Source: Escherichia coli
GTDB lineage: Bacteria; Pseudomonadota; Gammaproteobacteria; Enterobacterales; Enterobacteriaceae
Length of the DNA: 64,000 bases
Assembly (NCBI RefSeq): GCF_050320075.1
Contig: NZ_CP190018.1
Strand: one strand, 5' to 3'
Shown here: positions 2,720-45,069 of the stretch, piece by piece
How positions within the stretch are numbered: position 1 is the first letter of the stretch
How the letters are laid out: every line of letters starts with the position of its first letter
Program-made: the position numbers and the translations under genes
The notes under the pieces: generated by a model
Databases searched by the model: none
What the model saw: only the letters and a program-made list of their open reading frames with translations
Told to the model about the DNA's origin: nothing

Positions 2720-5017
2720 ATGAAATGGCTATGTTCAGTAGGAGTCGCGGTGAGTCTGGCCCTGCAGCCAGCACTGGCGGATGATTTATTCGGCAACCAT
2801 CCATTAACGCCCGAAGCGCGGGATGCGTTCGTCACCGAACTGCTTAAGAAAATGACAGTTGATGAGAAAATTGGTCAGCTGCGCTTAATCAGCGTCGGCC
2901 CGGATAACCCGAAAGAGGCGATCCGCGAGATGATCAAAGACGGTCAGGTTGGGGCGATTTTCAACACCGTAACCCGTCAGGATATCCGCGCCATGCAGGA
3001 TCAGGTGATGGAATTAAGCCGCCTGAAAATTCCTCTTTTCTTTGCTTACGACGTGCTGCACGGTCAGCGCACGGTGTTCCCGATTAGCCTCGGTCTGGCC
3101 TCGTCTTTTAACCTCGATGCAGTGAAAACGGTCGGACGTGTCTCTGCTTATGAAGCGGCAGATGATGGCCTGAATATGACCTGGGCACCGATGGTCGATG
3201 TCTCGCGCGATCCGCGCTGGGGACGTGCTTCCGAAGGTTTTGGCGAAGATACGTATCTCACCTCAACAATGGGTAAAACCATGGTGGAAGCGATGCAGGG
3301 TAAAAGCCCGGCAGATCGCTACTCGGTGATGACCAGCGTCAAACACTTTGCCGCATACGGCGCGGTAGAAGGCGGTAAAGAGTACAACACCGTCGATATG
3401 AGTCCGCAGCGCCTGTTTAATGATTATATGCCGCCGTACAAAGCGGGGCTGGACGCAGGCAGCGGCGCGGTGATGGTGGCGCTGAACTCGCTGAACGGCA
3501 CGCCAGCCACCTCCGATTCCTGGCTGCTGAAAGATGTTCTGCGCGACCAGTGGGGCTTTAAAGGCATCACCGTTTCCGATCACGGTGCAATCAAAGAGCT
3601 GATTAAACATGGCACGGCGACAGACCCGGAAGATGCGGTGCGCGTGGCGCTGAAATCCGGAATCAACATGAGCATGAGCGACGAGTACTACTCGAAGTAT
3701 CTGCCTGGGTTGATTAAATCCGGCAAAGTGACGATGGCAGAGCTGGACGATGCTGCCCGCCATGTACTGAACGTTAAATATGATATGGGGTTGTTTAACG
3801 ACCCATACAGCCATTTGGGGCCGAAAGAGTCTGACCCGGTGGATACCAATGCCGAAAGCCGCCTGCACCGTAAAGAAGCGCGTGAAGTGGCGCGCGAAAG
3901 CTTGGTGTTGCTGAAAAACCGTCTCGAAACGTTACCGCTGAAAAAATCGGCCACCATTGCGGTGGTTGGGCCACTGGCGGACAGTAAACGTGACGTGATG
4001 GGCAGCTGGTCCGCAGCCGGTGTTGCCGATCAATCCGTGACCGTACTGACCGGGATTAAAAATGCCGTCGGTGAAAACGGTAAAGTGCTGTATGCCAAAG
4101 GGGCGAACGTTACCAGTGACAAAGGCATTATCGATTTCCTGAATCAGTATGAAGAAGCGGTCAAAGTCGATCCGCGTTCGCCGCAAGAGATGATTGATGA
4201 AGCGGTGCAGACGGCGAAACAATCTGATGTGGTGGTGGCTGTAGTCGGTGAAGCACAGGGGATGGCGCACGAAGCCTCCAGCCGGACCGATATCACTATT
4301 CCGCAAAGCCAACGTGACTTGATTGCGGCGCTGAAAGCCACCGGTAAACCGCTGGTGCTGGTGCTGATGAACGGGCGTCCGCTGGCGCTGGTGAAAGAAG
4401 ATCAGCAGGCTGATGCGATTCTGGAAACCTGGTTTGCGGGGACTGAAGGCGGTAATGCAATTGCCGATGTATTGTTTGGCGATTACAACCCGTCCGGCAA
4501 GCTGCCAATGTCCTTCCCGCGTTCTGTCGGGCAGATCCCGGTGTACTACAGCCATCTGAATACCGGTCGCCCGTATAATGCCGACAAGCCGAACAAATAC
4601 ACTTCGCGTTATTTTGATGAAGCTAACGGGGCGTTGTATCCGTTCGGCTATGGGCTGAGCTACACCACTTTCACCGTCTCTGATGTGAAACTTTCTGCGC
4701 CGACCATGAAGCGTGACGGCAAAGTGACTGCCAGCGTGCAGGTGACGAACACCGGTAAGCGCGAGGGTGCCACGGTAGTGCAGATGTACTTGCAGGATGT
4801 GACGGCTTCCATGAGTCGCCCTGTGAAACAGCTGAAAGGCTTTGAGAAAATCACCCTGAAACCGGGCGAAACTCAGACTGTCAGCTTCCCGATCGATATT
4901 GAGGCGCTGAAGTTCTGGAATCAACAGATGAAATATGACGCCGAGCCTGGCAAGTTCAATGTCTTTATCGGCACTGATTCCGCACGCGTTAAGAAAGGCG
5001 AGTTTGAGTTGCTGTAA
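2720..5017 (+). CDS. bglX: Periplasmic beta-glucosidase (GH3)
   Basis: ORF 2648..5017. Start moved to MKWLCSVGVAVSLALQPALA signal peptide, giving 765 aa. GH3 family sequence. Confidence 0.9.
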   Translation: MKWLCSVGVAVSLALQPALADDLFGNHPLTPEARDAFVTELLKKMTVDEKIGQLRLISVGPDNPKEAIREMIKDGQVGAIFNTVTRQDIRAMQDQVMELSRLKIPLFFAYDVLHGQRTVFPISLGLASSFNLDAVKTVGRVSAYEAADDGLNMTWAPMVDVSRDPRWGRASEGFGEDTYLTSTMGKTMVEAMQGKSPADRYSVMTSVKHFAAYGAVEGGKEYNTVDMSPQRLFNDYMPPYKAGLDAGSGAVMVALNSLNGTPATSDSWLLKDVLRDQWGFKGITVSDHGAIKELIKHGTATDPEDAVRVALKSGINMSMSDEYYSKYLPGLIKSGKVTMAELDDAARHVLNVKYDMGLFNDPYSHLGPKESDPVDTNAESRLHRKEAREVARESLVLLKNRLETLPLKKSATIAVVGPLADSKRDVMGSWSAAGVADQSVTVLTGIKNAVGENGKVLYAKGANVTSDKGIIDFLNQYEEAVKVDPRSPQEMIDEAVQTAKQSDVVVAVVGEAQGMAHEASSRTDITIPQSQRDLIAALKATGKPLVLVLMNGRPLALVKEDQQADAILETWFAGTEGGNAIADVLFGDYNPSGKLPMSFPRSVGQIPVYYSHLNTGRPYNADKPNKYTSRYFDEANGALYPFGYGLSYTTFTVSDVKLSAPTMKRDGKVTASVQVTNTGKREGATVVQMYLQDVTASMSRPVKQLKGFEKITLKPGETQTVSFPIDIEALKFWNQQMKYDAEPGKFNVFIGTDSARVKKGEFELL

Positions 5018-8232: not shown

Positions 8233-8964
8233 ATGAAGATGTTGCGCGATCCGCTGTTCTGGCTCATTGCTCTGTTTGTGGCGCTGATTTTCTGGCTGCC
8301 TTACAGCCAGCCGCTGTTTGCTGCCTTGTTCCCACAACTGCCACGACCCGTTTATCAGCAAGAAAGTTTTGCTGCTCTGGCACTGGCTCATTTCTGGCTG
8401 GTGGGAATTTCGAGTTTGTTTGCGGTGATCATTGGCACTGGTGCAGGAATTATTGTTACTCGCCCGTGGGGCGCGGAATTTCGCCCACTGGTGGAAACTA
8501 TTGCCGCCGTTGGACAGACTTTTCCGCCCGTCGCGGTGCTGGCGATTGCCGTTCCGGTGATTGGGTTTGGTCTGCAACCCGCGATTATCGCCTTGATCCT
8601 TTATGGTGTGCTGCCCGTCCTGCAGGCAACACTTGCCGGGCTGGGAGCGATTGATGCCAGCGTGACAGAAGTTGCGAAAGGTATGGGAATGAGCCGTGGT
8701 CAGCGACTGCGTAAGGTCGAGCTACCGCTGGCGGCTCCGGTGATTCTGGCGGGCGTGCGAACTTCGGTGATTATCAACATTGGTACGGCGACGATCGCCT
8801 CAACGGTAGGGGCCAGCACGCTGGGTACGCCGATCATCATCGGGCTTAGCGGATTTAATACCGCGTATGTGATCCAGGGGGCGTTACTGGTGGCACTGGC
8901 GGCGATCATTGCAGACCGCCTGTTTGAAAGGCTGGTGCAGGCGCTTAGCCAGCACGCAAAATAA
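8233..8964 (+). CDS. yehW: Osmoprotectant ABC transporter permease
   Basis: 243 aa membrane protein, 4 nt after yehX. Confidence 0.85.
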
Positions 8965-9052
8965 AGGTATAACCTGCGAGCATGACGCCACCAATTCCGC
9001 CTAACGCCATAAACAGGAACAGGGCGATGACCCCAATTTTAGCTATGCGCAT
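8945..9052 (-). CDS. yohO: Small membrane protein (35 aa)
   Basis: Hand-translated minus-strand [38 protein letters not shown], below the ORF-track size cutoff. Matches recalled YohO. Its 3' end overlaps the yehW 3' end antisense. Confidence 0.7.
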
Positions 9053-9111
9053 AATGCACTCCTTATGTTAACGAAAGGATTGTACAGTAAAGCGCATTTG
9101 TTAACGAATCA

Positions 9112-9843
9112 TTAAATGCCGAGTGGGAAAATATCATGGCCTTGTTCCTGCCAACTGGTGAGTTGCTGCTGTTGGGCGGAGGTTCGATTTTCACCGCACC
9201 ACACCAGCAATGTACGGCCTTCGAACAGTTCAGGGCGTAGTTGATTGAGCGAGTGGGCGAGGACATCAATGCGCCATCCTTGTTGACTGGCAATCCAGCC
9301 CTCCAGCCACAGACGGGTGGTATCATGAATATTCCAGCCAACCACCAACGCATCTTTACCCTGTTTTTTACGTGCCGAAGCCAGGCAAATGGCGATGTAG
9401 TTGATCAGTACGCCGTCGAGGATCGCCAGCAGCGCCTGGAGAGTCGGTTGTTGGCACTGAAGTCGTCGGCGCAGAGGAATAAACAGATGTGTGGTGAGCG
9501 TCTGGGCGGGGTAATCCTGACCGCGCTCTTTGATCCACGTTCGCAGGCTATGCAGATTGCCGCTTTGCAGGTAAGTCAGTAATGTTTCTTGCTGATCGCG
9601 CCAGCCGTTCTGCACATCAACATTTTCATTACTGAGCAGCATTTTAACTTTGCTGACCTGCACGCCGTTGTCGATCCAGCGTTTGATCTCGCGGATCCGG
9701 TCAATATCGGCATCGTTGAACAGCCGATGGCCGCCGTCTGTCCGTTGCGGTTTCAGCAATCCGTAACGCCTCTGCCACGCGCGTAACGTGACAGGGTTAA
9801 TATCACAAAGCAACGCCACTTCACCAATTGTGTAAAGCGCCAT
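9112..9843 (-). CDS. mlrA: MerR-family transcriptional regulator
   Basis: 243 aa with N-terminal MerR-type HTH (YTIGEVALLCDINPVTLRAWQRRYGL). Position between yehW and btsS. Confidence 0.85.
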   Translation of the reverse strand: MALYTIGEVALLCDINPVTLRAWQRRYGLLKPQRTDGGHRLFNDADIDRIREIKRWIDNGVQVSKVKMLLSNENVDVQNGWRDQQETLLTYLQSGNLHSLRTWIKERGQDYPAQTLTTHLFIPLRRRLQCQQPTLQALLAILDGVLINYIAICLASARKKQGKDALVVGWNIHDTTRLWLEGWIASQQGWRIDVLAHSLNQLRPELFEGRTLLVWCGENRTSAQQQQLTSWQEQGHDIFPLGI

Positions 9844-21060: not shown

Positions 21061-24000
21061 TTAATGGAAAATGACGTCGGGTGCGCTTAACGCTTCACTC
21101 AAATCAAACACATCAAGTTCGGCAAAAGTGACAGATTTATTGTCACGGTATACATGAAGAGAACGGAAGCTCATTAGCGCTTTGCTATCAACATTGTAGT
21201 GGTTAAAACCGGATGAAAACTTAAGGACCAGCCGGTACTCGCCCAGGTCATAGACAAATGCATTCTCATAGCCTGACTCCCAGCCTTTGTATCGCATTCC
21301 CATAAGTTGCCCAACGGTAGCAGATTTACCTTCCCAGCGATTCAAACTATTACTGGCTGACTCGTCAGGCGTGAGCAGTACTGTGCGCCGTGCCAATTGG
21401 CGAAAAGGCGGCATAATTTCGTAATCGGCAAAAAGCTGTGCAAACTCACTGCGCATTTCTGCTGCCATTTCTAACGGGTGGGCAATGCCAATCAGAGCAT
21501 CGGCAGGCAGGTCAATTGGCTCATCTTGCTCATTGCAGAACTCCCCCTCAGCGGCCACACGAAAGGCGTTGAGTAAACGACGCGGTTCATTTGCCGGATA
21601 AACACCCCATATTAATCGCTGAGTAACCAGACGGGTAAAGGGATGATTAACAAACAGAGAATGAAAATCTGCCAGCGACCAGCGTCGGGTGGTGCGCAGG
21701 GCAGTTTCAAGACGCGGGAGCAGGTTTTTGCTCACCTGAGTGGCATCTTTTTTTAGCCCTTTTAGTCGGGCCAGTGCCTCGGGTGCTTTCAGTTGATCGT
21801 CATCGGCGCGCAACCGGGGAACGCTTTTCTGGCGAACGTTTTGCTGATCAAAGATAACCGGGTTAAGGTTTTCATCGAAGCGAACGGTAAATTGCCGTGG
21901 ACCAAAATCAAAAATCAACGCCTGCGGATCATCAAGACCCAGTGTTGGGACTAATCTGTCCGCTAACTGTTCCTGGCTTAGCCCTCGATTTTCTGCGACC
22001 ACCTGAAGAAATTCCGCCGCGTTATCACGTAAGGGGCGGGATTTCGCCCGTTGCGATATATGATGCAGCTGTATCAGTGCCATATCATTATTCATCTGAG
22101 TAAGTATGTTCAGGCCGCTGACGGCACGGGCAGATTTGCCTTCCTGTGGCCAGGCAAGGATCTGTGTCGTCAGATCCCGTGCCGTGCTTTCGTCGCCAAA
22201 GAGACTTAACGCCAGAAATGCCCAGTTGTCTTTTGCGGGAGCACCAGCTTGTTGCCACGCGGTGAAAAGATCCCAGGCAAAAGCTGCCAGCGTTTGCGGC
22301 TGGCAGAAAGTTTTCAGTTGTTCCAGTCCGCTATAAAAACGTCCGCCCTGGGTAAAGCGCAGCATTTCGCCGATAATTTCCAGTGCGTCATCGGTAACAG
22401 GCTGATTATTCGTGATAAGGCGCGGCCTGGACCACATTGCCGGCTGCCAGAAATCAGGGGCTTTTGGAATGCGTGTCGGGTAAATCTCTATTGGACTCTG
22501 TTTAAGTAAATGCTCCAGGGCAGGCCATACATCTGTACGCTGCCAGCGGTTTGCCGCGGTTTGCAGCAATTCACCATGTCCCTGTTCGTAAAGTAAACGT
22601 AGGGCAAGTAATGCAGCTTCGCTATTATCGCTGGATTTGGTGAAGACAAGAGGGATAAGTGCAGTAGCCGTATGTTCCGGCCATTGTAAAATCCACTGGC
22701 GAGCCAGATCACGCTGCGCCGCGAAACGTCGCCAGACGCGGGCAACGGGCAGGGCCAGTTCTGTTGCGCCAAAATTTAAAATTAACGGAAATGTTTCTTT
22801 TGGACGATATGAAAAAGCCAACAGCAGACCTGGTAGAGCATCCAATCCGAAGATACTGAGAAAATAGTCCTCACCCGCGAACAGATGCTTTTTCTCATTG
22901 ATACGTAGCCAGAAAGTCAAAGCTATCTCACGCGGCAACTGTGCCAATAAATACAGGTTCCAGATACTCTTTTCCCGACGATAGCGTGAGTAGCTGTCAT
23001 TTTCCCATATGTTAATTAACACTTCTACGTGACCGCTGCGAAGCGCCTGTTCTGCTAATTGTGCTTCCGGGGAGTTCCAGCCATTCAGGATCTCTTCAAC
23101 CCGCCCCTGGTAGTAATGCCACTGAACAATGAGTGAATTGCGTGCAGCATCCAGTTTTCCGGGGAGTATATAATTCAGAAACAGCCATACATCATCTCCA
23201 AAACCCAGCTCCTGTAGTACAACTCGTCCACTTTTATGTTCCATGCGTTCCGCAAGAGATTCCGTGCTGAAATAACGGGCAGACTCAGTGGCGGCAAGCC
23301 TCTCTCGTTCGCCTGGTTGCCAGTAAACTTGCGGCGTTAATTCGAACGGTGCCAAATCAAGACGTGGAACTGTCATTTTTTTCTTACTACGCCACGGTGG
23401 TGAAACGAGGATTTCAGGCATTTGGCTGTTATCGGTGCTATCAATAACCGTTTTAGGCGGTGCCGATAAATAACTATTCAGCACTGACCGGGCTTGAGTA
23501 CTTAACCACGGCATCACCTCTTCTGCCAGTTGTGGCTGCGATGCCATCAGCGTTTGTAACAGCGTACGCCAGTATTCATCACGTGCTTTTTGCTGTGCAG
23601 GCAGCTTTTTGTCTTCGATGATTGGATAACCAGGGCGCGTAGGTGGTTCTTTTAGCGCCAGCAGTTCTGCCAGTGCGGCAAGCGTCGCATGGGGGAAATT
23701 TTTACTGTATTTAGCTACACGTTGCAGGCTGGGTTTGTTTTTATCAGCAACTAACAGCAGGGTGCGGATGACCTGCGGATGGTTAATTTGTACCAGCAGA
23801 CTGCCGCAATCTTCTTTATGGGCATACATTGCCAGGCGTGGAACGGCTGCCAGTCCTTGTTCGCGCAAAAGGGCAGCGCAGGCCGCGTAGCCGAAGTGGT
23901 TTTCATGCGACATGTAGCTGGCTTCCCGATCGCTAAATATATCCTGGCTCCAGTAGCGTTCGAGTTTTCTCACCGCTCTGGGGTCAATAGCAACAACTTT

Positions 24001-24693
24001 TAACCACTCCTTAGAATGAAAATGAGTCCACGGGCATTCAAGGCTTACCAACTCATTGGCGATTTCTGGTTTTTCCGGGAGGATCAGAGCAATAAAAGGG
24101 CGGCGAACTTTGGTTATTCCTGGCAGTGCGGCAATGAGTTTGTCGGCGCAACGCTGCCAGCTGCTTTCCTCTGCCAGAGAGAGATGCTTACGCAGTCGGA
24201 GATCGAATTCGTTATAGGTTTCTGATCGATAACCATAGCCATAATCCTCGTTCTGATACTGCAATGTCACTAGCAGAGGATCACTTTCATAACATCGTGT
24301 AATAAACTGGCGTGCAATCACCACCTCAGTCGCATATTCCAGTCCCTCTTGTTGGACGATTTCGTCGAGCAACTGTTGGCTATCATTTTGCGCGATACAG
24401 GCTAGCGCCGCCATTGTCCGGGCCGGAACTGAGGGTTTGTGTTCGCCAATCAAGTTGATGGCCTGCGTAATGGCCGACTGCCACTCCAGTGAAAAATTTT
24501 CATAACGCCAGACAATGTTTTTTTTCTTCTCAGCTTTTTGTAGCAATTCATCACCCAGTGTCTGGATGAGGCTTTCAGTGATAACAGGCACCGGTTCGCC
24601 CGGCCAACTGCGATGGCTGAGCGGCGTTTTGCCTTTTTTATATTTCAGTTCCACTTGGGCGTTATCCGCCAGCCACGGTAATTCCTTGTCCAT
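21061..24693 (-). CDS. yehI: Large uncharacterised protein YehI (DUF4132-type, no WGR domain)
   Basis: 1210 aa. Shares conserved blocks with the two upstream paralogs (HLSLAEES.WQ.C..K, LIWGVY, C-terminal region) but lacks their N-terminal WGR-like domain. Confidence 0.85.
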   Translation of the reverse strand: MDKELPWLADNAQVELKYKKGKTPLSHRSWPGEPVPVITESLIQTLGDELLQKAEKKKNIVWRYENFSLEWQSAITQAINLIGEHKPSVPARTMAALACIAQNDSQQLLDEIVQQEGLEYATEVVIARQFITRCYESDPLLVTLQYQNEDYGYGYRSETYNEFDLRLRKHLSLAEESSWQRCADKLIAALPGITKVRRPFIALILPEKPEIANELVSLECPWTHFHSKEWLKVVAIDPRAVRKLERYWSQDIFSDREASYMSHENHFGYAACAALLREQGLAAVPRLAMYAHKEDCGSLLVQINHPQVIRTLLLVADKNKPSLQRVAKYSKNFPHATLAALAELLALKEPPTRPGYPIIEDKKLPAQQKARDEYWRTLLQTLMASQPQLAEEVMPWLSTQARSVLNSYLSAPPKTVIDSTDNSQMPEILVSPPWRSKKKMTVPRLDLAPFELTPQVYWQPGERERLAATESARYFSTESLAERMEHKSGRVVLQELGFGDDVWLFLNYILPGKLDAARNSLIVQWHYYQGRVEEILNGWNSPEAQLAEQALRSGHVEVLINIWENDSYSRYRREKSIWNLYLLAQLPREIALTFWLRINEKKHLFAGEDYFLSIFGLDALPGLLLAFSYRPKETFPLILNFGATELALPVARVWRRFAAQRDLARQWILQWPEHTATALIPLVFTKSSDNSEAALLALRLLYEQGHGELLQTAANRWQRTDVWPALEHLLKQSPIEIYPTRIPKAPDFWQPAMWSRPRLITNNQPVTDDALEIIGEMLRFTQGGRFYSGLEQLKTFCQPQTLAAFAWDLFTAWQQAGAPAKDNWAFLALSLFGDESTARDLTTQILAWPQEGKSARAVSGLNILTQMNNDMALIQLHHISQRAKSRPLRDNAAEFLQVVAENRGLSQEQLADRLVPTLGLDDPQALIFDFGPRQFTVRFDENLNPVIFDQQNVRQKSVPRLRADDDQLKAPEALARLKGLKKDATQVSKNLLPRLETALRTTRRWSLADFHSLFVNHPFTRLVTQRLIWGVYPANEPRRLLNAFRVAAEGEFCNEQDEPIDLPADALIGIAHPLEMAAEMRSEFAQLFADYEIMPPFRQLARRTVLLTPDESASNSLNRWEGKSATVGQLMGMRYKGWESGYENAFVYDLGEYRLVLKFSSGFNHYNVDSKALMSFRSLHVYRDNKSVTFAELDVFDLSEALSAPDVIFH

Positions 24694-24702
24694 GCTCTTT
24701 CC

Positions 24703-27700
24703 TTATTCAAACAGGGCTTCAATATCGTTAATGAGTTCGCTGGCGGTGATGTCGTCGAGCACGGAGAACTGCGCTTCCTGAGTTGAATTACTCCCCCAGC
24801 CATAGCTTTCCGCTTTGCCTTCCCATAGCCACAGCTTGCTTAAGACCTGCTCAGCGCTAAGATCGGCTGGTGACATACCCACCGCAAAACCTTCGTCGAT
24901 TTCCATGATTAACGACCAGCGACCGAGAGGTTTGATCATCCATCCGATCCAGCCTCCATCCTGTGGTTCGCCCTTTATCCAGCCTTTATTTGCCAGCCCC
25001 ATGACCCGGCCGCTCGGGCATTTTCTGCCTGCCCAGCGGGTCAGTTCGCTGGCGTTGCGCTCGGCTTCTGTCAGGGCGTAACTGTTACGTTCAAGCTGAC
25101 GGAACGGTGGTAGCAGTTCGTAGTCGGCAAAAAGCTGACCAAAGGCGACAGCATCCGTCGGTGATATTTCCAGAACGTGAGGAATGCCAACAGAGATATC
25201 GCCTTCCTGCAAGGTGAAAAGATCATCGTCAGCGGTGCTGTAGCTGTTATCTTCCGCCACCCTAAAGCACGCCTGTAGCTGGTTTTCGGCGCTATAAACG
25301 CCCCAAATCAGACGGCGGGTTAAGTGACGAACCAGCGGATGCTCAACCAGGAAGAGCTGAAAGTTTTCCGGCGACCAGCGGCGGCGCAGGCACATGGCGG
25401 ATTCCAGCCTTGCTACCTGCTGGGCGGCGACGGTACGCGCATCTTTTTTCAGCAATTTGTAGCGGTTAACAGCATCGTTTGCCTGTGATTCATCATCGCT
25501 TTTATTGGGTTTAGGTAAGTCTTTCAGGCGGCTGCCGGAAACATCGCGCACAAACGGTTTTAAGGTTTCATCAAAGCTGACGGTGAACTGCCGTGGGCCA
25601 AAATCCAGCAGCAGCGAACCGTTATCATCCAGACCGAGAGCCGGTGCTAACCGATCTTCAAGCTCCGCTACCGTCAGTTCGCGACTTTCGGCAATGTCGG
25701 CAATTTTCTCTTTCGCCCGCTCCTGTAATGCTTTGAATTTCAGTTTCTGGGCAATGCCGTTAAGCTGCATCAGGGCGATATCACTACTGATAGCGGCGAG
25801 GATATCCAGCCCGACGGTGGCGCGTTTATGCTGGGATTCACCAGGCCAGGCGCGTATTAATGGCGTCAGTTTGCGGGCGGTGTCATCGTTACCGAGAACG
25901 CCTAACGCAGTGAACGCCCAACTCTCTTTCGACGGCGCGCCAGCGGTCTGCCAGGCGGTAAACAGATCCCAGGCAAATTCAGCCAGTGAGTCGGCGGTAC
26001 AGGCATCTTTCACCTGCAATAATCCCGGATACAGCGCCTCCTCCTGATGGAAGCGGAGCATTTCACCGAGGTGCTGGAGTGCGCTATCGGGCAGTGATTG
26101 GGCATTTGCTTTTAATACCGGGCGGGTCCAGATCGATGGCTGATAAAAGGCCGGAAGAGTGGGGATTTTTGTCGGGTGATTATCTAAGGGATCGAGCGCA
26201 AGCATAGCGTTCACCGCATCTGTTACTTCCGGCTGGTTATAACGCCGGGCGATTTCTTGCAGTAATGGTTGATGACCGTTTTCGGTAAGCATACGCAATG
26301 CAGCGCGGGCGTTATCCTGTGCTTCACCGGCTTTGCCGAGCGCCGCAGACAGCAGGCCGGTAATGGCGTGTTCCGGGTATTTCAGCAGCCAGGTGCGGGC
26401 GTCTTGTCGTAGGGTTTTGAGTTTGTTGAAGGCGCGGGCGACGGCAGGTGCCAGCTCACTCGCTGCGAAGTAATTCGTTATGGGCAAGGCTTCCTGTGGA
26501 TAGCGTGCAAGTGAGTTTACTAACCCAGGTAATCCTTTGAGTCCAAAATGTAACATGGCGTATTCGGTATCGGTATGCGGAGATAGAGTAAGGGCATTCC
26601 ATGCTCTTACTGCTTTCTCCAGCGGCAATGTTGTCAAAATCCCCAAATGCCAATAATGCCCGGTAGGTGAATGAAACACCTTAAATTCACTTATTAAAGT
26701 TGAATAATCTTCATTTAGCCATGCCTCAACTACCGCTTCGGGAGCTTTAATATATGTACCAGCGATCCGTCGTTGAAAACCCATCCTTGCCAACAGATTG
26801 GCAGTACTTTCTTCATGACTAACCGTGATGTGTTTTGAATACCAGATATATTTCGCCAAAAGTTGATTACTGATTTCTTCTGTCAGATAACTGATTGGCT
26901 CAATACCTAATGGTGCTAAATCAAGCACTGGAATCGGCGATTTTTTCTTTTTCGAAAGCCATGGTGGGGAGACTACTATGGCCGGCAGTAGATCGGCGCT
27001 GGCATGGTTTGAGGGCTGTGTCAGTTGTTGCTGGCATGATTTCAGCACTGCAACTGCGGGTGTCGAAAGCCAGGGAATGACCTGTTCTGCTAGTGTCGGT
27101 TGCGAGATAAGCATCGTCATTAGCATAATGCGCCAACTATTCTCTTCTTTTTGCACTAGAAGTTCCGCCAGTGCTGCCAGTGCTGCGTGTGGGAACGCAG
27201 CGCAGGCTTTCGTCATTCGATCGTGACAGCGTTTAGTATGCCCTGCTACACGTATAAGCAGTGTTAATGCGAACGGATGATTGATATGACGCAACACATC
27301 GGCGCAGTAGTCACTTGCGACATAGGGAGCAAATCGGGGCAGGGCCGCAACACCTTGCTCCTGTAATACGGTGGCTGACCATATCGCACCACAATAGTAA
27401 TCATCAAAAATGGCATATGGCTCGTGATATTTTTCTAATGAGGCAAGAATGTGCTCATCAGTCGCCACTATTTTTAGCCACTCCAGCGAGGGTAATTTCT
27501 TTTGCCCCAGTAGACGCTGGGCAATTTCATGTGCAATTTCTGGTTTTTCGGGCAATAACAAAGCAATTAATGGTTGCCGCCATTCTGGAATATGTGGAAC
27601 TGCGGCAATAAGTTTTTGTGCACATTTTTGCCAGAGAGACTCTTCCGCCAGTGATAAATGTTTACGTAGGCGTAATTCAAAGCTGGAATATTGCTGCAAA

Positions 27701-28497
27701 TAATCAGGTGAAATGCCAGACGACAGGAAAACAATATTATTGTTGACATAATCCCATTCAATAGATATTTGTTGAAGATGTATTATTACATCAGTAGCAT
27801 ATTCCAGACCGCCTTCCTGAATAATCTGATCCATAACATCCGCACGCTCTTTATATCTCGTGCAGTGCAGTTCAAGTGCCGCGAGTACAGCCATTACCGG
27901 TGATGGTAATTTTGTCGTTTTCGGGCTGTTAATCAGATCGATCGCCTGAGCGATGAAGTTTTGCCACTCTAAAGTACAGGCGCTGAAGTCAAATGTAGCT
28001 GTTTTGTTATCCCGTTGCGACACGCCACAGGCTAAGCGACGTAACTGGGTTAATTTATCTACAGGTGTAACAGGATCTCCGGGAAAGCGGCGATGGCTTA
28101 AGGTGGTGGGTACGACTTCAAGCGGAAAAACGACAGCAATATCTTTTGCCAGCCACGGTAAAATAACGTCTGTATTTTTGTCAGCCACGTAGAATTCTGG
28201 TGTAACTGAGGGCTGTTCCTGAATGATGGTAGAAAAGTCAGATAATTCGAGAGATTTCGTTACCGTTCGAGTATGTTTCGATGTAGCATTCTCCGCATGT
28301 TCCACATACCCCTTTTTCGTTTTCTCCGCAATCAGCTTGAGTTCCGCTTTTTCCGCCGCCGCAGCATCTGCAAAGCTTTTTACCTGACTTTGCCCGTTGG
28401 TGCCGACTTTGCCCCAACTGATATTCAGTTCGTTTCCCTGCTGCTCCACCGCCCAGAATTTATGTGATTTTTCGTCCTGATAAATATAGGTTTTCAT
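24703..28497 (-). CDS. molR: WGR-domain / DUF4132 protein (MolR family), intact 1264 aa
   Basis: N-terminus MKTYIYQDEKSHKFWAVEQQGNELNISWGKVGT is WGR-like. Length equals the K-12 molR pseudogene product as I recall it. 9-nt gap to yehI. Confidence 0.8.
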   Translation of the reverse strand: MKTYIYQDEKSHKFWAVEQQGNELNISWGKVGTNGQSQVKSFADAAAAEKAELKLIAEKTKKGYVEHAENATSKHTRTVTKSLELSDFSTIIQEQPSVTPEFYVADKNTDVILPWLAKDIAVVFPLEVVPTTLSHRRFPGDPVTPVDKLTQLRRLACGVSQRDNKTATFDFSACTLEWQNFIAQAIDLINSPKTTKLPSPVMAVLAALELHCTRYKERADVMDQIIQEGGLEYATDVIIHLQQISIEWDYVNNNIVFLSSGISPDYLQQYSSFELRLRKHLSLAEESLWQKCAQKLIAAVPHIPEWRQPLIALLLPEKPEIAHEIAQRLLGQKKLPSLEWLKIVATDEHILASLEKYHEPYAIFDDYYCGAIWSATVLQEQGVAALPRFAPYVASDYCADVLRHINHPFALTLLIRVAGHTKRCHDRMTKACAAFPHAALAALAELLVQKEENSWRIMLMTMLISQPTLAEQVIPWLSTPAVAVLKSCQQQLTQPSNHASADLLPAIVVSPPWLSKKKKSPIPVLDLAPLGIEPISYLTEEISNQLLAKYIWYSKHITVSHEESTANLLARMGFQRRIAGTYIKAPEAVVEAWLNEDYSTLISEFKVFHSPTGHYWHLGILTTLPLEKAVRAWNALTLSPHTDTEYAMLHFGLKGLPGLVNSLARYPQEALPITNYFAASELAPAVARAFNKLKTLRQDARTWLLKYPEHAITGLLSAALGKAGEAQDNARAALRMLTENGHQPLLQEIARRYNQPEVTDAVNAMLALDPLDNHPTKIPTLPAFYQPSIWTRPVLKANAQSLPDSALQHLGEMLRFHQEEALYPGLLQVKDACTADSLAEFAWDLFTAWQTAGAPSKESWAFTALGVLGNDDTARKLTPLIRAWPGESQHKRATVGLDILAAISSDIALMQLNGIAQKLKFKALQERAKEKIADIAESRELTVAELEDRLAPALGLDDNGSLLLDFGPRQFTVSFDETLKPFVRDVSGSRLKDLPKPNKSDDESQANDAVNRYKLLKKDARTVAAQQVARLESAMCLRRRWSPENFQLFLVEHPLVRHLTRRLIWGVYSAENQLQACFRVAEDNSYSTADDDLFTLQEGDISVGIPHVLEISPTDAVAFGQLFADYELLPPFRQLERNSYALTEAERNASELTRWAGRKCPSGRVMGLANKGWIKGEPQDGGWIGWMIKPLGRWSLIMEIDEGFAVGMSPADLSAEQVLSKLWLWEGKAESYGWGSNSTQEAQFSVLDDITASELINDIEALFE

Positions 28498-28509
28498 TGC
28501 AAAGTCCTT

Positions 28510-31500
28510 TTAATCAAAAAGTGATTCGATGTCGTTAATGAGTTCGCTGGCGGTGATGGCATCAAGCGCGGAGAACGTGAGCGAGGGCTGTGTACTGTAG
28601 CGTTCCCCTGGTGAAGTGATTTTTACGCTTTCAACAGGTAGCAGGTCGCTATACCCCGTTTCGCCATAAATTAATGAAAAATGTTCTGTTTCAAGTTCGA
28701 GAGCGCCATAAGGGGTAGATTTGCGCATCGCATAGACGCTGCCGCTTTCTTCCAGACGTTGCCAGCCTCGACGTTCCAGCCCGACAATGCGCCCGGCCTG
28801 GCAAAGACGTCCTTGCCAGCGTATCAATTCATGGGTATCACGTTCATTATCAGTAAGGTGGTAATAACCACGATCGAGTTGGCGAAAGGGAGGAAGCTTT
28901 TCGTAATCAGCATAAATTTGCCCAAATGCAGTGGCGGATTCAGGAGATATTTCCAGCACATGCGGTATACCGATGTTTCCTGCTGGCAGCGTGAATAACT
29001 CATCCTGCGCATCGCTGTAAGTGCTGTCTTCTGCGACCCGGAAGCAGGCGATCAGCGTGTTTTCCTCAGTATATACCCCCCATAACACCCGTCGGGTTAA
29101 GTGACGTACCAGCGGATGCTCCACCAGAAACAGGCGGAACTGCTCTGCCGTCCAGCGTCTGCGCTGGCACATATCCTGCTCCAGACGATCAATCTGCTGG
29201 CTGGCAATGGCGTGCACATCTTTCTTCAATTGTTTGAAGAGGTTAACGGAGTCAGTTGCCAGTGTTTGATCATCGCTCTGATTTGGTTTGGGTAAATCTT
29301 TCAGGACTTTGCCGTTTGCATCGTGCACTACAGGTTTTAAGGTTTCGTCAAAACCAACGGTGAATTGACGTGGGCCGAAATCCAGTATCAGCGAGCCACT
29401 GTTATCAAGCCCTAAATCTGGAGCCAGGCGGTCTTCCAGTTCAGCCATAGTCAGCCCACGGTTTTCAGCAACTATGTTGATTTTCTCGCGGGCATGTTCC
29501 TGTAATGCTTTGAATTTAATTTTTCGCGCGATGCCATTAAGCAGCATTAGCGCAACATCGCTGCCAATATCAGCTAATACATCCAGCCCGTAAACCGCGC
29601 GTTTATGCTGGGATTCACCCGGCCAGGCACGGATAAGCGGGGTTAATTTACGTGCGGTGTCGTCATTGCCTAAAATCCCAAGCGAAGTAAATGCCCAGTT
29701 TTCTTTTGCGGGTGCGCCAGCTTCTGTCCATGCCGTGTAGAGATCCCAGCCAAAGTCAGCCAGTGATTCGTGGGTGAAGGTCTCTTTGATGGTCGCCAGC
29801 CCAGCGTAGGAGGTAATGTCGCGTGGAAAGCTCAACATTGTGCCCAGGTGGCGCATAGCGTCATCTGGCAGAGGCAGGTTGTTACTTTTAAGCCGTGGTC
29901 TGCGCCATAAGGTGAACTGATAAAAGCCGGGCAGTGGGGCGATTTTAGCGGGATATTCTTCCAGCGGATCGCTATCGAACAATGTTGCCAGCGCAGCTAA
30001 AACATCAGGTTGGTTGTATCTCCGGCCGATTTCTTCAATCGTTTCTCGCTGGTTTAATTTCACTAGCAGGCGGAATGCCTGGCGGGCATATTCCCGATTT
30101 TGGCACGGTTTGCCCAGCGCCAAAGGCAGTAGCCCGGCGGCGGCATGGCGCGGGTTATTTGCCAGCCAATTAATGGCATCCTTGTAAGCCATTTTTTTCT
30201 GTAACCGCTGCGCCATTGGTAAGGCTAGTTCACTGGCCCCAATAAAGAGGGTGAATATCCACAGTCGTTGATGATCTCGTTGCAAGCAGGTCATAAACGC
30301 AGGAATGGCCGTACTACCAAAAACTGCCAGAATCTCTTTCTCACCTGAATATCGCTCCTCAATGATTATTTGGTTGAGAAATGAAATCGCCTGTTGTCCC
30401 GGTAAGTAACAAAGCGCAGATAGATTCCAGCTTTTGTTGGCATTGTTGTGATATTTCGCAAACTCAGCTTTTAGTGCTGGAAAATCAAAGCGCAACAAGG
30501 CATCAACAGCGCTTTGCGGTATATATTTTTTTTCATGTAAGTCATCTTCGCAATGCAGCCATTCATTAAAACCTAATTGCCAAAGGATTTGTTGTTCTGG
30601 TGTAAAAGGAATGAAAGATGTCTCCCAGCTTTCTTTTTCAATTAGTGGCAGGTCGGTAAATAAGGTTTGCTGTGATGACTGATATTGCGCGATTTCACTG
30701 AATCTGGATATGTCAGTATGACTGATTAACTCTGTAATTCCTGGCGTGATGTCAGTGACTGCAGGGATGGGAAGCACCGGTAAATCAAATACGGGTATTA
30801 CATTCGTTTTCTTATTTATTACCCACGGTGGAGCGACAAACAGCTCCGGCAACATATCCGCAGTGGCGTATTCACATTCTTCAGCGACTAACTGAGTACG
30901 ACATTCAGATAAGATGCCTGCCGCTTTAGCATTAACCCAGGGAATGACGTCAGTGACTAAATCTGGCGTGGCGGTAATCAGTTTGACAAGCGCTTTACGC
31001 CACTGTGCATCTTCATGTATTGCCAGTAAAGTTGCATAAGCGGCAAGAGCCGCAGCGGGATGTTTTTGACAGGCTTTGCTTAAGTATTCCAGGTGCTTTT
31101 TCTTGCCAATTACACCGAGGATCAGAATTTGAATCGCATCCGGGTGATTCGTTTTCCATAGCCATTTGACAAGATCTTCAGTCTCGCTGATGCGCTCGAA
31201 GAGATAAGTGGGATTGTCAGAATGCTCTTCCGTAAACTCAAGAAGTATCCGGCTTACACCGCGCACCCCATTATTTGCCAGCAACATTGCCAGATAAGCG
31301 CGAAAATCATGATACAACGGTGGGAAGTCGTATTTTTCTGCTGTAGTCAGAGCGGCGTCATCGGTTACCACCAGTCTTAACCAGGTCATCGCCGGAACGT
31401 TTTGATCTGCATAACGTAGCGCCATAGCATTGGCAATATCCGGGCGTTCAGGGAGCAGTAACGCCGCAAAAGGTTGCCGTGCTGGGGATAGCGAGGGAAT

Positions 31501-32307
31501 AGCAGCGAGAACTTTATCTACACAGCGTTGCCACTCATCTTCTGAAGCGAGTGAAAGATGATGACATAGACGTTGATGCCAGTTCGGTAGTGATTCTGCT
31601 TTGAGATCAGGGGGAATAATGGTGGTGACGTCGGCTTTTACTGGTTTATATTTGAGTTGAAGAGCGAGAAGGGCGATTTCAACGGTAGTTTCCAGACCAC
31701 AGCGAATGACTAAGTCATCGACCAGTTCATCTGTAGAGTAAGAGTTCCATAAATTCCAGAGCAATGCCGCATCAGATTGTATACTTCCTGTTTGTTGATT
31801 ATTCAGAATTCGCCTTTGTAACTCGGCAAACGCCAGCTGCCAGTTTTCAGGATAAGAGCGGTAATTATTGTCGGGGTCATATGCCCTGGTGTTATTCGCG
31901 ATGCGCTTCCATATTTGGCCATCTTTGTACAGATAATTGATCTCTCTGGGGCGAGAGCGATGAGGAAAAGCAAATCGATTAATATCGCCAGTTACCGGAA
32001 TGACTGCATCATCAGCCACCCATGGGCGTTTGTTTTTACTCTCAGGGGAGGTTTCAACTTCAGGAGTGGCTTTGGTGATGGGGGGGATATGCACGTTTGC
32101 TAAAGCATTTTCCACATAGCCTTTTTTCGTTTTCTCTGCGATCAGCTTAAGCTCCGCTTTTGCCGCTGCCGCAGCATCCGCAAAACTTTTTACCTGGTTT
32201 TGCCCTTTGGTGCCAACTTTTCCCCAACAGATATGCAACTCGTTTCCCTGTTGCTCCACCGCCCAGAATTTATGTGATTTTTCGTCCTGAAAGATAAAGT
32301 GCCTCAT
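28510..32307 (-). CDS. Second WGR-domain / DUF4132 paralog (MolR-like), 1265 aa
   Basis: N-terminus MRHFIFQDEKSHKFWAVEQQGNELHICWGKVGT. Same architecture as molR, diverged in the middle. 12-nt gap to molR. I do not recall a second copy in K-12. Confidence 0.8.
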   Translation of the reverse strand: MRHFIFQDEKSHKFWAVEQQGNELHICWGKVGTKGQNQVKSFADAAAAAKAELKLIAEKTKKGYVENALANVHIPPITKATPEVETSPESKNKRPWVADDAVIPVTGDINRFAFPHRSRPREINYLYKDGQIWKRIANNTRAYDPDNNYRSYPENWQLAFAELQRRILNNQQTGSIQSDAALLWNLWNSYSTDELVDDLVIRCGLETTVEIALLALQLKYKPVKADVTTIIPPDLKAESLPNWHQRLCHHLSLASEDEWQRCVDKVLAAIPSLSPARQPFAALLLPERPDIANAMALRYADQNVPAMTWLRLVVTDDAALTTAEKYDFPPLYHDFRAYLAMLLANNGVRGVSRILLEFTEEHSDNPTYLFERISETEDLVKWLWKTNHPDAIQILILGVIGKKKHLEYLSKACQKHPAAALAAYATLLAIHEDAQWRKALVKLITATPDLVTDVIPWVNAKAAGILSECRTQLVAEECEYATADMLPELFVAPPWVINKKTNVIPVFDLPVLPIPAVTDITPGITELISHTDISRFSEIAQYQSSQQTLFTDLPLIEKESWETSFIPFTPEQQILWQLGFNEWLHCEDDLHEKKYIPQSAVDALLRFDFPALKAEFAKYHNNANKSWNLSALCYLPGQQAISFLNQIIIEERYSGEKEILAVFGSTAIPAFMTCLQRDHQRLWIFTLFIGASELALPMAQRLQKKMAYKDAINWLANNPRHAAAGLLPLALGKPCQNREYARQAFRLLVKLNQRETIEEIGRRYNQPDVLAALATLFDSDPLEEYPAKIAPLPGFYQFTLWRRPRLKSNNLPLPDDAMRHLGTMLSFPRDITSYAGLATIKETFTHESLADFGWDLYTAWTEAGAPAKENWAFTSLGILGNDDTARKLTPLIRAWPGESQHKRAVYGLDVLADIGSDVALMLLNGIARKIKFKALQEHAREKINIVAENRGLTMAELEDRLAPDLGLDNSGSLILDFGPRQFTVGFDETLKPVVHDANGKVLKDLPKPNQSDDQTLATDSVNLFKQLKKDVHAIASQQIDRLEQDMCQRRRWTAEQFRLFLVEHPLVRHLTRRVLWGVYTEENTLIACFRVAEDSTYSDAQDELFTLPAGNIGIPHVLEISPESATAFGQIYADYEKLPPFRQLDRGYYHLTDNERDTHELIRWQGRLCQAGRIVGLERRGWQRLEESGSVYAMRKSTPYGALELETEHFSLIYGETGYSDLLPVESVKITSPGERYSTQPSLTFSALDAITASELINDIESLFD

Positions 32308-32447: not shown

Positions 32448-34481
32448 TTATTTCACCTGATGACCCGGTTTAGCACCGGCATCCGGGCTTAGCAGGAAAA
32501 TATCTTTCCCGCCAGGACCGGCAGCCATCACCATGCCTTCGGAGATACCGAAGCGCATTTTACGTGGTGCCAGGTTAGCCACCATAATGGTGTGACGACC
32601 AATCAGTGCCTGCGGATCCGGGTAAGCAGAACGAATGCCGGAGAAGACATTGCGTTTTTCACCGCCGAGATCCAGCGTCAGGCGCAGCAGTTTGTCGGAA
32701 CCTTCAACAAACTCTGCGTTTTCAATCAGTGCCACGCGCAGGTCAACTTTGGCGAAGTCATCAAAGGTGATAGTTTCCTGGATTGGATCGTCAGCCAGCG
32801 GGCCAGTTACCGGCGCGGCAGCGGCTTTTACTTCTTCTTTAGATGCTTCCACCAGTGCTTCAACCTGCTTCATATCGATGCGGTTATACAGCGCCTTGAA
32901 CGGATTCACTTTATGGCCCAACAGCGGTTGCTGGATACCATGCCAGGTCAGTTCTGTATTGAGGAATGCTTCTGCACGCTCGGTCAGTTTCGGCAGTACC
33001 GGCTTCAGGTAAGTCATCAGCACGCGGAACAGGTTGATGCCCATCGAGCAAATTGCCTGCAGGTCGGCATCGCGGCCTTCCTGTTTCGCCACCACCCACG
33101 GAGCCTGTTCATCGACATAGCGGTTAGCCAGGTCAGCCAGCGCCATAATTTCGCGTACTGCTTTACCAAATTCGCGGCTTTCCCACGCTTCACCAATCAC
33201 TTCAGCGGCATCCGTGAAGGTTTTGTACAACTGCGGGTCAGCCAGTTCGCTTGCCAGCACGCCGTCAAAACGCTTGTTGATAAAGCCAGCGTTACGGGAT
33301 GCCAGGTTAACCACTTTATTCACGATATCGGCATTCACACGCTGAACGAAATCTTCCAGGTTGAGATCGATATCATCAATGCGCGAAGAGAGTTTCGCAG
33401 TGTAGTAGTAACGCAGGCTGTCAGCATCAAAATGATTCAGCCAGGTACTGGCTTTAATAAAGGTGCCGCGAGACTTGGACATCTTCGCGCCGTTCACCGT
33501 CACATAGCCATGAACAAACAGGTTAGTCGGCTTGCGGAAGTTGCTGCCTTCCAGCATGGCAGGCCAGAACAGGCTGTGGAAGTAAACGATATCTTTACCG
33601 ATGAAGTGGTACAGCTCGGCGGTGGAATCTTTCTTCCAGTATTCATCGAAGCTGGTGGTGTTGCCGCGTTTGTCGCACAGATTCTTGAAGGAACCCATGT
33701 AGCCAATCGGTGCGTCCAGCCAGACGTAGAAATATTTGCCCGGCGCGTTCGGAATTTCAAAACCGAAGTAAGGGGCGTCGCGGGAGATATCCCACTGTTG
33801 CAGGCCGGATTCAAACCACTCCTGCATTTTGTTTGCCACCTGCTCCTGCAACGCACCGCTGCGGGTCCATGCCTGCAACATTTCGCTGAAAGAGGGCAGA
33901 TCAAAGAAGAAGTGTTCAGAATCACGCATTACCGGGGTAGCGCCAGAAACCACCGATTTCGGCTCGATCAGTTCAGTCGGGCTGTAGGTCGCACCGCAGA
34001 CTTCGCAGTTATCGCCGTATTGATCCGGGGATTTACATTTCGGGCAGGTGCCTTTTACAAAACGGTCCGGCAGGAACATGCCTTTTTCCGGATCGTAAAG
34101 CTGAGAGATGGTGCGGTTTTTAATAAAACCGTTTTCTTTCAGGCGAGAGTAGATAAGTTCTGACAACTGGCGGTTCTCTTCGCTGTGCGTCGAGTGATAG
34201 TTGTCATAGCTGATGTTAAAGCCTGCGAAATCAGTCTGATGCTCCTGACTCATTTCGCCAATCATCTGCTCCGGGGTGATACCGAGCTGCTGAGCTTTCA
34301 GCATGATCGGTGTGCCGTGGGCATCGTCGGCGCAGATGAAGTTGACCTCGTGGCCGCGCATTCGCTGGTAACGGACCCAGACATCAGCCTGGATGTGCTC
34401 CAGCATATGGCCGAGGTGGATTGAGCCGTTAGCGTACGGCAGTGCGCACGTCACCAGAATTTTCTTCGCGACTTGAGTCAT
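32448..34481 (-). CDS. metG: Methionyl-tRNA synthetase
   Basis: ORF 32448..34490. Start at [25 protein letters not shown] gives 677 aa. Class I aaRS HIGH motif and KMSKS present. Confidence 0.95.
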
Positions 34482-34612
34482 AGTAGGCATTACTTCTTAA
34501 TAGTGAAAAGGGGTTAGATAGTACCAAATGGAAAAATGTTAAGTAAGTACTTCTCTATATTCTTCAGGTAAACTATCAGCTGATGGTTTATCTATACAAA
34601 AAAGGAGTCGGG

Positions 34613-43261: not shown

Positions 43262-43359
43262 TTTATTAACGCGATTGTAAAACTGCGGTTTTTACTCGTT
43301 TACAACGCGTGCGCTGGACATTACCATCCTCCTCTGCGATTTATCATCGCAATCAAACG

Positions 43360-43483
43360 ACTCGGGGTGCCCTTCTGCGTGAAGGCTGAGAAATACCCGT
43401 ATCACCTGATCTGGATAATGCCAGCGTAGGGAAGTCACGGACCACCAGGTCATTGCTTCTTCACGTTATGGCAGGAGCAAACT
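43360..43483 (+). promoter_or_regulatory. TPP (thi-box) riboswitch in thiM leader
   Basis: ggggtgcccttctgcgtgaaggctgagaaatacccgtatcacctgatctggataatgccagcgtagggaagtc carries the conserved CUGAGA and thi-box elements. Ends at the thiM SD/start. Confidence 0.9.
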
Positions 43484-44272
43484 ATGCAAGTCGACCTGCT
43501 GAGTTCCGCGCAATCTGCGCACGCGTTACATCTTTTTCACCAACATTCCCCTCTTGTGCACTGCATGACCAACGATGTGGTGCAAACCTTTACTGCCAAT
43601 ACCTTGCTGGCGCTCGGTGCATCCCCAGCGATGGTTATCGAAACCGAAGAGGCCAGTCAGTTTGCGGCTATCGCCAGTGCGTTGCTGATTAACGTTGGCA
43701 CGCTGACGCAGCCACGCGCACAGGCGATGCGTGCCGCCATTGAACAGGCAAAACGCTCTCAAACACCCTGGACGCTTGATCCAGTAGCGGTGGGTGCACT
43801 CGATTATCGCCGCCGTTTTTGTCTGGAACTTCTGTCTCATAAGCCAACCGCCATACGTGGTAATGCTTCGGAAATCATGGCATTAGCTGGCGTTGCTAAT
43901 GGTGGACGGGGAGTGGATACCACTGACGCCGCAGCTAATGCGATACCCGCTGCACAAACACTGGCACGGGAAACTGGCGCAATCGTCGTGGTCACTGGCG
44001 AGATGGATTATGTTACCGATGGACATCGTATCATTGGTATTCACGGTGGCGATCCGTTAATGACCAAAGTGGTAGGAACTGGCTGTGCATTATCGGCGGT
44101 TGTCGCTGCCTGTTGTGCGCTACCAGGCGATACGCTGGAAAATATCGCATCTGCCTGTCACTGGATGAAACAAGCCGGAGAACGCGCAGTCGCCAGTAGC
44201 GAGGGGCCAGGCAGTTTTGTTCCACATTTCCTTGATGCGCTCTGGCAATTGACGCCGGAGGTGCAGGCATGA
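43484..44272 (+). CDS. thiM: Hydroxyethylthiazole kinase
   Basis: 262 aa, downstream of the TPP riboswitch. Confidence 0.9.
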
Positions 44273-45069
44273 AACGAATTAACGCTCTGACGATTGCCGG
44301 TACTGATCCGAGTGGTGGTGCGGGGATTCAGGCCGATCTTAAAACCTTCTCGGCACTTGGCGCTTATGGTTGCTCAGTGATTACTGCACTGGTGGCGCAA
44401 AATACCCGTGGCGTACAGTCGGTGTATCGCATTGAGCCTGATTTTGTCGCTGCCCAGCTCGATTCGGTGTTCAGCGATGTGCGAATCGACACCACTAAAA
44501 TCGGTATGTTGGCGGAAACCGATATTGTTGAAGCGGTGGCAGAACGGTTGCAACGTTATCAGATCCAAAACGTGGTACTCGACACCGTTATGCTGGCAAA
44601 AAGCGGCGACCCGCTGCTTTCACCTTCGGCGGTTGCTACGCTGCGCAGTCGATTATTGCCACAGGTTTCATTAATAACGCCAAACTTGCCCGAAGCTGCT
44701 GCCTTGCTCGACGCGCCACACGCGCGCACCGAACAGGAAATGCTGGAACAAGGGCGATCGCTGTTGGCGATGGGCTGTGGCGCAGTGCTAATGAAAGGTG
44801 GTCATCTGGATGATGAGCAAAGCCCTGACTGGCTGTTTACTCGTGAGGGGGAACAACGATTTACTGCACCGCGCATTATGACCCAAAACACCCACGGCAC
44901 TGGTTGTACGCTCTCTGCGGCGTTGGCTGCACTACGCCCGCGCCATACAAACTGGGCTGACACCGTACAGGAGGCAAAAAGCTGGCTTTCATCGGCGTTA
45001 GCCCAGGCCGACACGCTGGAAGTTGGTCACGGTATTGGTCCGGTTCACCACTTCCACGCCTGGTGGTGA
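44269..45069 (+). CDS. thiD: Hydroxymethylpyrimidine/phosphomethylpyrimidine kinase
   Basis: 266 aa. ATGA overlap with thiM. Confidence 0.9.

Follow-up and report, generated by a model that had tools for sequence, protein, structure and literature searches.

The DNA analysed here (the window) is a 64,000-nucleotide stretch of Escherichia coli contig NZ_CP190018.1 (assembly GCF_050320075.1). Translation of the window revealed a 35-codon ORF with an ATG start on the minus strand at 8945..9052. The surroundings of this ORF, yohO, are the osmF-yehYXW / mlrA / btsSR region of E. coli. It overlaps yehW tail to tail, and its ATG lies 59 nt from the end of mlrA. The features of the locus are as follows, with the basis of each assignment.

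8945..9052, minus strand: yohO coding sequence (35 aa plus stop; UPF0387 small membrane protein YohO); ORF and translation, RefSeq, NF010225 and exact YOHO_ECOLI match.
8969..9010, minus strand: yohO codons 15-28, the nearly invariant Gly-rich core, C-terminal half of the predicted transmembrane (TM) helix; column counts over 46 unique proteins and alignment.
9059..9064, minus strand: Shine-Dalgarno (SD) sequence AAGGAG, 6 nt 5′ of the yohO ATG; sequence, with spacing conserved across mlrA-anchored loci.
9079..9084, minus strand: putative yohO -10 box, TACAAT in E. coli; inference from cross-genus conservation.
8945..8964, no strand assigned: overlap of the yohO and yehW coding sequences, tail to tail, 20 nt; coordinates.
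8233..8964, plus strand: yehW, last gene of osmF-yehYXW (glycine betaine ABC transporter permease), with its variable C-terminal tail in the overlap; annotation.
9112..9843, minus strand: mlrA, same-strand neighbour upstream of yohO; annotation.

An earlier note on this DNA had placed a 35-aa small membrane protein gene at 8945-9052 on the minus strand, with its last 20 nt overlapping the end of yehW on the opposite strand. Both placements were exact: the gene has an ATG start and an SD sequence and is annotated in RefSeq, and the overlap occupies 8945..8964, the same as in RefSeq. In locus L001, the RefSeq coordinates of yohO are 3646..3753. The note had also described the gene as missed by the ORF track. 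It is indeed absent from the default ORF list, because the minimum length for that list is 60 aa; there is no gap in annotation.

Several other features were observed elsewhere in the window. A full-length Rfam match to the OrzO-P antitoxin RNA (101.3 bits; gathering score 60) lies at 20216..20291 on the minus strand and indicates that this strain has a type I toxin-antitoxin locus of the zor-orz kind, which K-12 is not known to have. At 43353..43449 (plus strand), a TPP riboswitch directly precedes two ORFs, probably thiMD, at 43484..45069. The Hfq-binding sRNA STnc490 gave a full-length match of 143.9 bits at 51396..51519 (plus strand). Three consecutive very large ORFs (1210, 1264 and 1265 aa; 21061..32307, minus strand) separate the yeh genes from a 680-aa ORF at 32448..34490; from their size and tandem order, they would appear to be paralogues.

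Identification of the ORF as yohO

The 451-bp yohO region had matches in 5423 of the 5426 complete E. coli genomes searched, with coverage of 80% or more in 5420. The RefSeq annotation under the matched region reads "yohO: protein YohO". In a genome with 100% identity, the annotated gene order is osmF, yehY, yehX, yehW, yohO (opposite strand, 20-nt overlap with yehW), mlrA, btsS, btsR; the yehW, yohO, mlrA order and the overlap found in the window are the same as in the RefSeq Escherichia annotation, i.e., the ORF occupies the orthologous position. The peptide scored 80.1 bits (cut-off 57) against the NCBIfam equivalog NF010225 "protein YohO", with residues 1-35 aligned on profile positions 1-35, and exact-sequence look-up of the 35-aa peptide returned YOHO_ECOLI, "UPF0387 membrane protein YohO". 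Relatives of YohO are labelled Pfam PF27791 (UPF0387_membrane). A Pfam-A search with YohO gave just a sub-threshold B12D match and no match to the YohO family, because PF27791 is newer than the Pfam copy used. When the gene was compared with that of E. coli K-12 (YOHO_ECOLI; UPF0387; NF010225; PF27791), no difference was seen in the 35-aa sequence, in the location between mlrA and yehW or in the length of the overlap (20 nt). These findings indicate that the ORF at 8945..9052 is yohO itself, not a yohO-like gene. The earlier note had described it as "yohO-like".

yohO is already known: it is a long-standing entry in the E. coli annotation, curated models exist for its family, and both ribosome profiling and mass spectrometry have detected its product. 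Published ribosome profiling shows coverage of yohO in the correct frame, and native YohO was detected by top-down mass spectrometry in a 2025 proteomics paper. Hemm et al. (2008) is cited in the literature for YohO as a membrane-bound small protein. In Shigella flexneri, the yohO transcript was lowered by 2.96 log2 units under anaerobiosis. An ASKA clone overexpressing yohO was a first-round survivor of an Ala-Ala toxicity screen and was later lost from it; its presence among the survivors indicates that YohO overexpression is at least tolerated.

Conservation of the yohO reading frame

Short ORFs are common in this region. Because the 6 kb around yohO contain 94 ORFs of at least 20 aa, a 35-codon ORF is by itself unremarkable, and 8945..9052 could in principle be an ORF that arose by chance between yehW and mlrA and is no gene. 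Conservation of the frame was analysed in a set of 80 species loci from ~25 genera that was anchored on MlrA instead of YohO. A YohO match was present directly downstream of mlrA in all 80 loci, and 79 of them contained an intact ORF of 34-37 aa with an ATG start and an (A/C)AGGAG SD sequence. The nucleotide sequences of yohO were all distinct. Mean pairwise differences at codon positions 1, 2 and 3 were 7.5, 3.0 and 15.6, respectively. Relative to E. coli, dN/dS was 0.07-0.25 for most genera, with dS of about 1-2.

Metagenome loci were retrieved with a degenerate DNA pattern for the YohO core (residues 15-28). All 120 contigs that matched the pattern were YohO loci; the ORF was complete (34-37 aa) in 118, and the other two (L145 and L159) were cut off by the contig end. 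An exhaustive search of cluster representatives gave 17 YohO representatives, many of which were frameshifted or chimeric gene calls. By source names, the family ranges over Enterobacteriaceae and Erwiniaceae. These findings indicate that the yohO frame is under strong purifying selection across Enterobacteriaceae and Erwiniaceae. The counts of intact frames, the third-position variation and the dN/dS values place the ORF above chance. A gene that is annotated, translated, conserved and under purifying selection leaves a negligible probability to a chance ORF.

The single exception among the 80 loci was Citrobacter amalonaticus AUH_CA_2023_1 (L008 3770..3905), in which a one-base insertion in a T run breaks the yohO frame. 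In Leclercia adecarboxylata NCTC13032 (L043 3870..4700), yehW is frameshifted and its 3′ end is intact. Since both are long-read assemblies, sequencing error is as likely as pseudogenization. Two public YohO records are labelled "Pseudomonas graminis" and "Enterococcus faecalis" (P0175, P0196). Their sequences are identical or nearly identical to YohO of Erwinia and of Klebsiella/Raoultella, and these assemblies are therefore likely to be contaminated or mislabelled.

Predicted structure of YohO

YohO is predicted to be a protein of ~35 aa with a single TM helix, as the earlier note had also proposed. The best 19-residue Kyte-Doolittle window (residues 8-26) had a hydropathy of 2.41, and AlphaFold2 gave a single helix spanning residues 3-34 (pLDDT 88.9). 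A PDB search revealed no YohO homologue.

Constraint was distributed unevenly along the helix. Among 46 unique proteins, residues 15-28, MA(I/V/L)(G/S)GI(G/S)GVML(A/M/V/T)GY, were invariant or nearly so; the N-terminal half of the helix varied among hydrophobic residues only. K5 was retained in 45 of the 46. This nearly invariant lysine and the frequent K/R2, set against R/H33, would favour an N-in topology. The Gly-rich residues 15-28 show GGxGG and small-xxx-small spacing: invariant G19, G22 and G27, together with G/S at 18 and 21 and A26, produce (G/A/S)xxxG spacings. They resemble transmembrane glycine-zipper/GxxxG sequences, a likeness by motif alone. The full constraint on this glycine-rich half of the helix points to close packing against another helix. 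Like other bacterial microproteins, YohO would act through such packing of its glycine-rich face, in a homo-oligomer or on a larger membrane protein.

Transcription of yohO

A -10 box was found ~30-45 nt upstream of the yohO ATG in every lineage compared. Most genera have TATAAT; the E. coli sequence is TACAAT, and that of both Salmonella arizonae and Erwinia is TATACT. The box was kept whatever the upstream gene (mlrA, metG, a fepA-like gene, roxA or a DUF3833 gene), and in Mangrovibacter it comes after an evident metG terminator. Because the box is conserved regardless of the upstream gene, we infer a yohO-specific promoter; yohO would be transcribed from this putative promoter just upstream, with a 5′ UTR of roughly 20-25 nt. 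A consensus promoter scan called no yohO promoter, because the -35 element is weak. RNA folding of the leader gave a non-significant z-score, in accordance with a short, unstructured leader. An anti-SD pairing (CCUUU/AAGGAG) present in E. coli was dropped as a candidate, since the other genera do not share it.

Two copies of the decamer TTCGTTAACA lie between mlrA and yohO, at 9099..9108 and 9066..9075 (minus strand), one on either side of the putative -10 box. Both positions carry a (G/A)TTAACA element that is conserved in most Enterobacteriaceae. The repeat may be a regulator site, or a part of the promoter and initial transcribed region.

The 3′ ends of the two convergent genes were also analysed. 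RNA folding of the E. coli sequence revealed no significant hairpin after either stop codon (z = -1.2 and +0.3). A consensus terminator scan found only weak terminator-like sites: 4, vs. 2.6 ± 1.8 in shuffled sequences. One of these weak sites, within chance expectation, is a hairpin TGGGGTCATCGCCCTG with a T-rich tail inside yohO on the sense strand (9020..9035, minus strand). At loci where the yehW overlap is absent (L208, L173, L211), a GC-rich hairpin directly follows the yohO stop; in L173 it is formed by GGCCCGGCGGCA...TGCCGCCGGGCC. This arrangement suggests that a terminator was gained, or unmasked, when the overlap was lost.

Overlap of yohO and yehW

Wherever yehW adjoins yohO, in species and metagenome loci alike, the two coding sequences overlap by 14, 17, 20, 23 or 26 nt, a length that is always 2 mod 3. 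On the yohO strand, the yehW stop always reads TTA or TCA, across yohO codons 30/31. Shifts in overlap length reflect in-frame indels that extend both tails, e.g., YohO of 37 aa with YehW of 245 aa, and 35 aa with 243 aa. In this phase, the wobble positions of yohO lie opposite the second codon positions of yehW. The YehW tail past its FERL motif had a mean pairwise identity of 0.22-0.39, vs. 0.62 for YohO residues 31-34. The part of YehW within the overlap thus looks dispensable, and selection there is dominated by the yohO frame. Judged from the loci compared, the overlap is ancestral and phase-locked.

The gene upstream of yohO is variable. mlrA is absent from this position in Mangrovibacter, Shimwellia, Erwinia and a Cedecea-like lineage. 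The 20-nt overlap with yehW persists in Mangrovibacter, which has metG or a regulator upstream of yohO, and in Shimwellia, which has a fepA-like receptor gene there. Thus, the linkage of yohO is to yehW, not to mlrA, and mlrA is no obligate partner. The adjacency to yehW is itself lost in two lineages. In the Cedecea-like lineage, which includes "Klebsiella sp. BIGb0407", the order is roxA, yohO, convergent bglX; in Erwinia amylovora/persicina-type genomes, yohO is flanked by a DUF3833 gene and a glycosyltransferase gene. YohO is intact in both, and osmF-yehYXW was not found at the yohO locus of either. Other Erwinia genomes retain a 14-nt overlap. A search for YehW homologues gave close relatives only, among the matches listed. 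The presence of intact yohO without adjacent yehW in two lineages indicates that the overlap is not essential to YohO function.

Because the coding sequences overlap and no convincing terminator follows either stop, the yohO and osmF-yehYXW transcripts would be complementary at their 3′ ends. If both promoters fired, mutual interference (a convergent excludon) would be expected, rather than co-expression. The pair is explicitly included in a published list: yohO-yehW is one of the 165 convergent excludons of E. coli MG1655 identified from RNA-seq coverage (ExcludonFinder map). It is, like the others, a convergent pair with obligatory transcript overlap; at yohO-yehW, however, the coding regions themselves overlap, beyond the 3′ UTRs. 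Regulatory coupling of yohO and yehW through the overlap, which the earlier note had suggested as a possibility, is plausible in view of this listing, and any such coupling would be antagonistic interference, not co-expression.

A further proposal is that the overlap has been selected for regulation, as a true excludon through which a single cell would express either YohO or the transporter and not both. The coding overlap guarantees complementary 3′ ends, neither stop is followed by a terminator-like structure, the pair is among the published MG1655 excludons, and phase and overlap have been maintained over long evolutionary distances. However, conservation of the overlap would be expected even if it were neutral, because its removal requires duplication or changes in both protein tails. 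Its length has drifted between 14 and 26 nt, the tail of YehW shows no constraint, and the arrangement was lost in two lineages with no visible change in YohO. We regard selection of the overlap as a regulatory device as possible, though doubtful.

Possible functions of YohO

osmF-yehYXW (yehZYXW) and mlrA are RpoS-dependent, and OsmF-YehYXW transports glycine betaine with low affinity. Modulation of transporters is a role of many E. coli microproteins, and single-TM proteins suitable for comparison include AcrZ (AcrB), KdpF (KdpABC), MgtS (MgtA), CydX (CydAB) and MgrB (PhoQ). YohO resembles these in size, in its one hydrophobic helix with a conserved face suited to packing, and in being missed by length-thresholded gene finders. 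It differs in that it is present without the neighbouring transporter in some lineages. KdpF and CydX are co-transcribed with their partners, whereas YohO is not co-transcribed with its candidate partner.

This comparison bears on the possibility that YohO serves OsmF-YehYXW as a dedicated subunit, accessory or regulatory, like KdpF for KdpABC or AcrZ for AcrB, and that the overlap reflects this partnership. yohO stays attached to the 3′ end of yehW when its upstream neighbour switches from mlrA to metG or a fepA-like gene, the overlap is kept across ~25 genera, and modulation of transporters by E. coli microproteins is frequent. However, a KdpF-like subunit would be encoded within the transporter operon and co-transcribed with it; yohO is encoded on the other strand, has a conserved -10 box and a putative promoter of its own, and so lies outside the operon. 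Strict co-occurrence was likewise not found at the locus: yohO is intact and equally constrained where the locus has no osmF-yehYXW (Erwinia amylovora/persicina-type and Cedecea-like genomes). In addition, the overlap itself resists separation of the two genes, which makes synteny weak evidence of function. A dedicated subunit is, on balance, unlikely. The same low probability applies to a composite of the two preceding proposals, in which the overlap, retained in Enterobacteriaceae and some Erwiniaceae, is a working excludon that makes YohO and OsmF-YehYXW expression reciprocal, and YohO docks through its invariant Gly-rich half-helix on YehW/YehY as a modulator.

A further possibility is that YohO is a type I toxin, i.e., a membrane-damaging hydrophobic peptide held in check by antisense RNA from the yehW 3′ end. 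YohO is small and hydrophobic, an antisense transcript would run across the yohO 3′ end, and the OrzO-P RNA represents a genuine type I system in the same window. However, yohO belongs to the syntenic core, is present in one copy and is under strong purifying selection in both families; a strong SD sequence precedes it, and its leader is short and unstructured; native YohO is detectable in ordinary cultures; and the ASKA overexpression clone survived a selection. PADLOC gave no defence-system match for yohO, and an Rfam search of 8600..9400 at permissive thresholds gave no match. Membership in a type I toxin-antitoxin system was rejected on the basis of the single-copy core status, short leader, lack of Rfam and PADLOC matches, and viable overexpression clone. 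We consider the toxin reading highly improbable.

The evidence fits best with YohO as a single-pass microprotein of the inner membrane that is transcribed independently. Taken as a whole, the locus is very probably explained by the known gene yohO, encoding a conserved single-pass microprotein that would be transcribed from its own putative promoter, act through helix packing and be subject to convergent interference with yehW.

Discussion

As a discovery, the gene is of little consequence: yohO and its convergent overlap with yehW were both already catalogued. The case nevertheless demonstrates that reading of the sequence alone can recover genuine genes of less than 50 aa that are dropped by a length-thresholded ORF track. 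The checks put forward in the earlier note supported its reading. The reading frame is kept across Enterobacteriaceae and Erwiniaceae (79/80 species loci, 118/120 metagenome loci), the overlap is 14-26 nt with constant phase wherever yehW adjoins, and the ribosome footprint that it named as evidence of translation is present in published profiling, together with the top-down mass spectrometry result. For YohO itself, the possible functions are narrowed by four features: a putative promoter of its own, a helix of which only the C-terminal half is invariant, an ancient overlap with yehW, and no dependence on an adjacent transporter operon.
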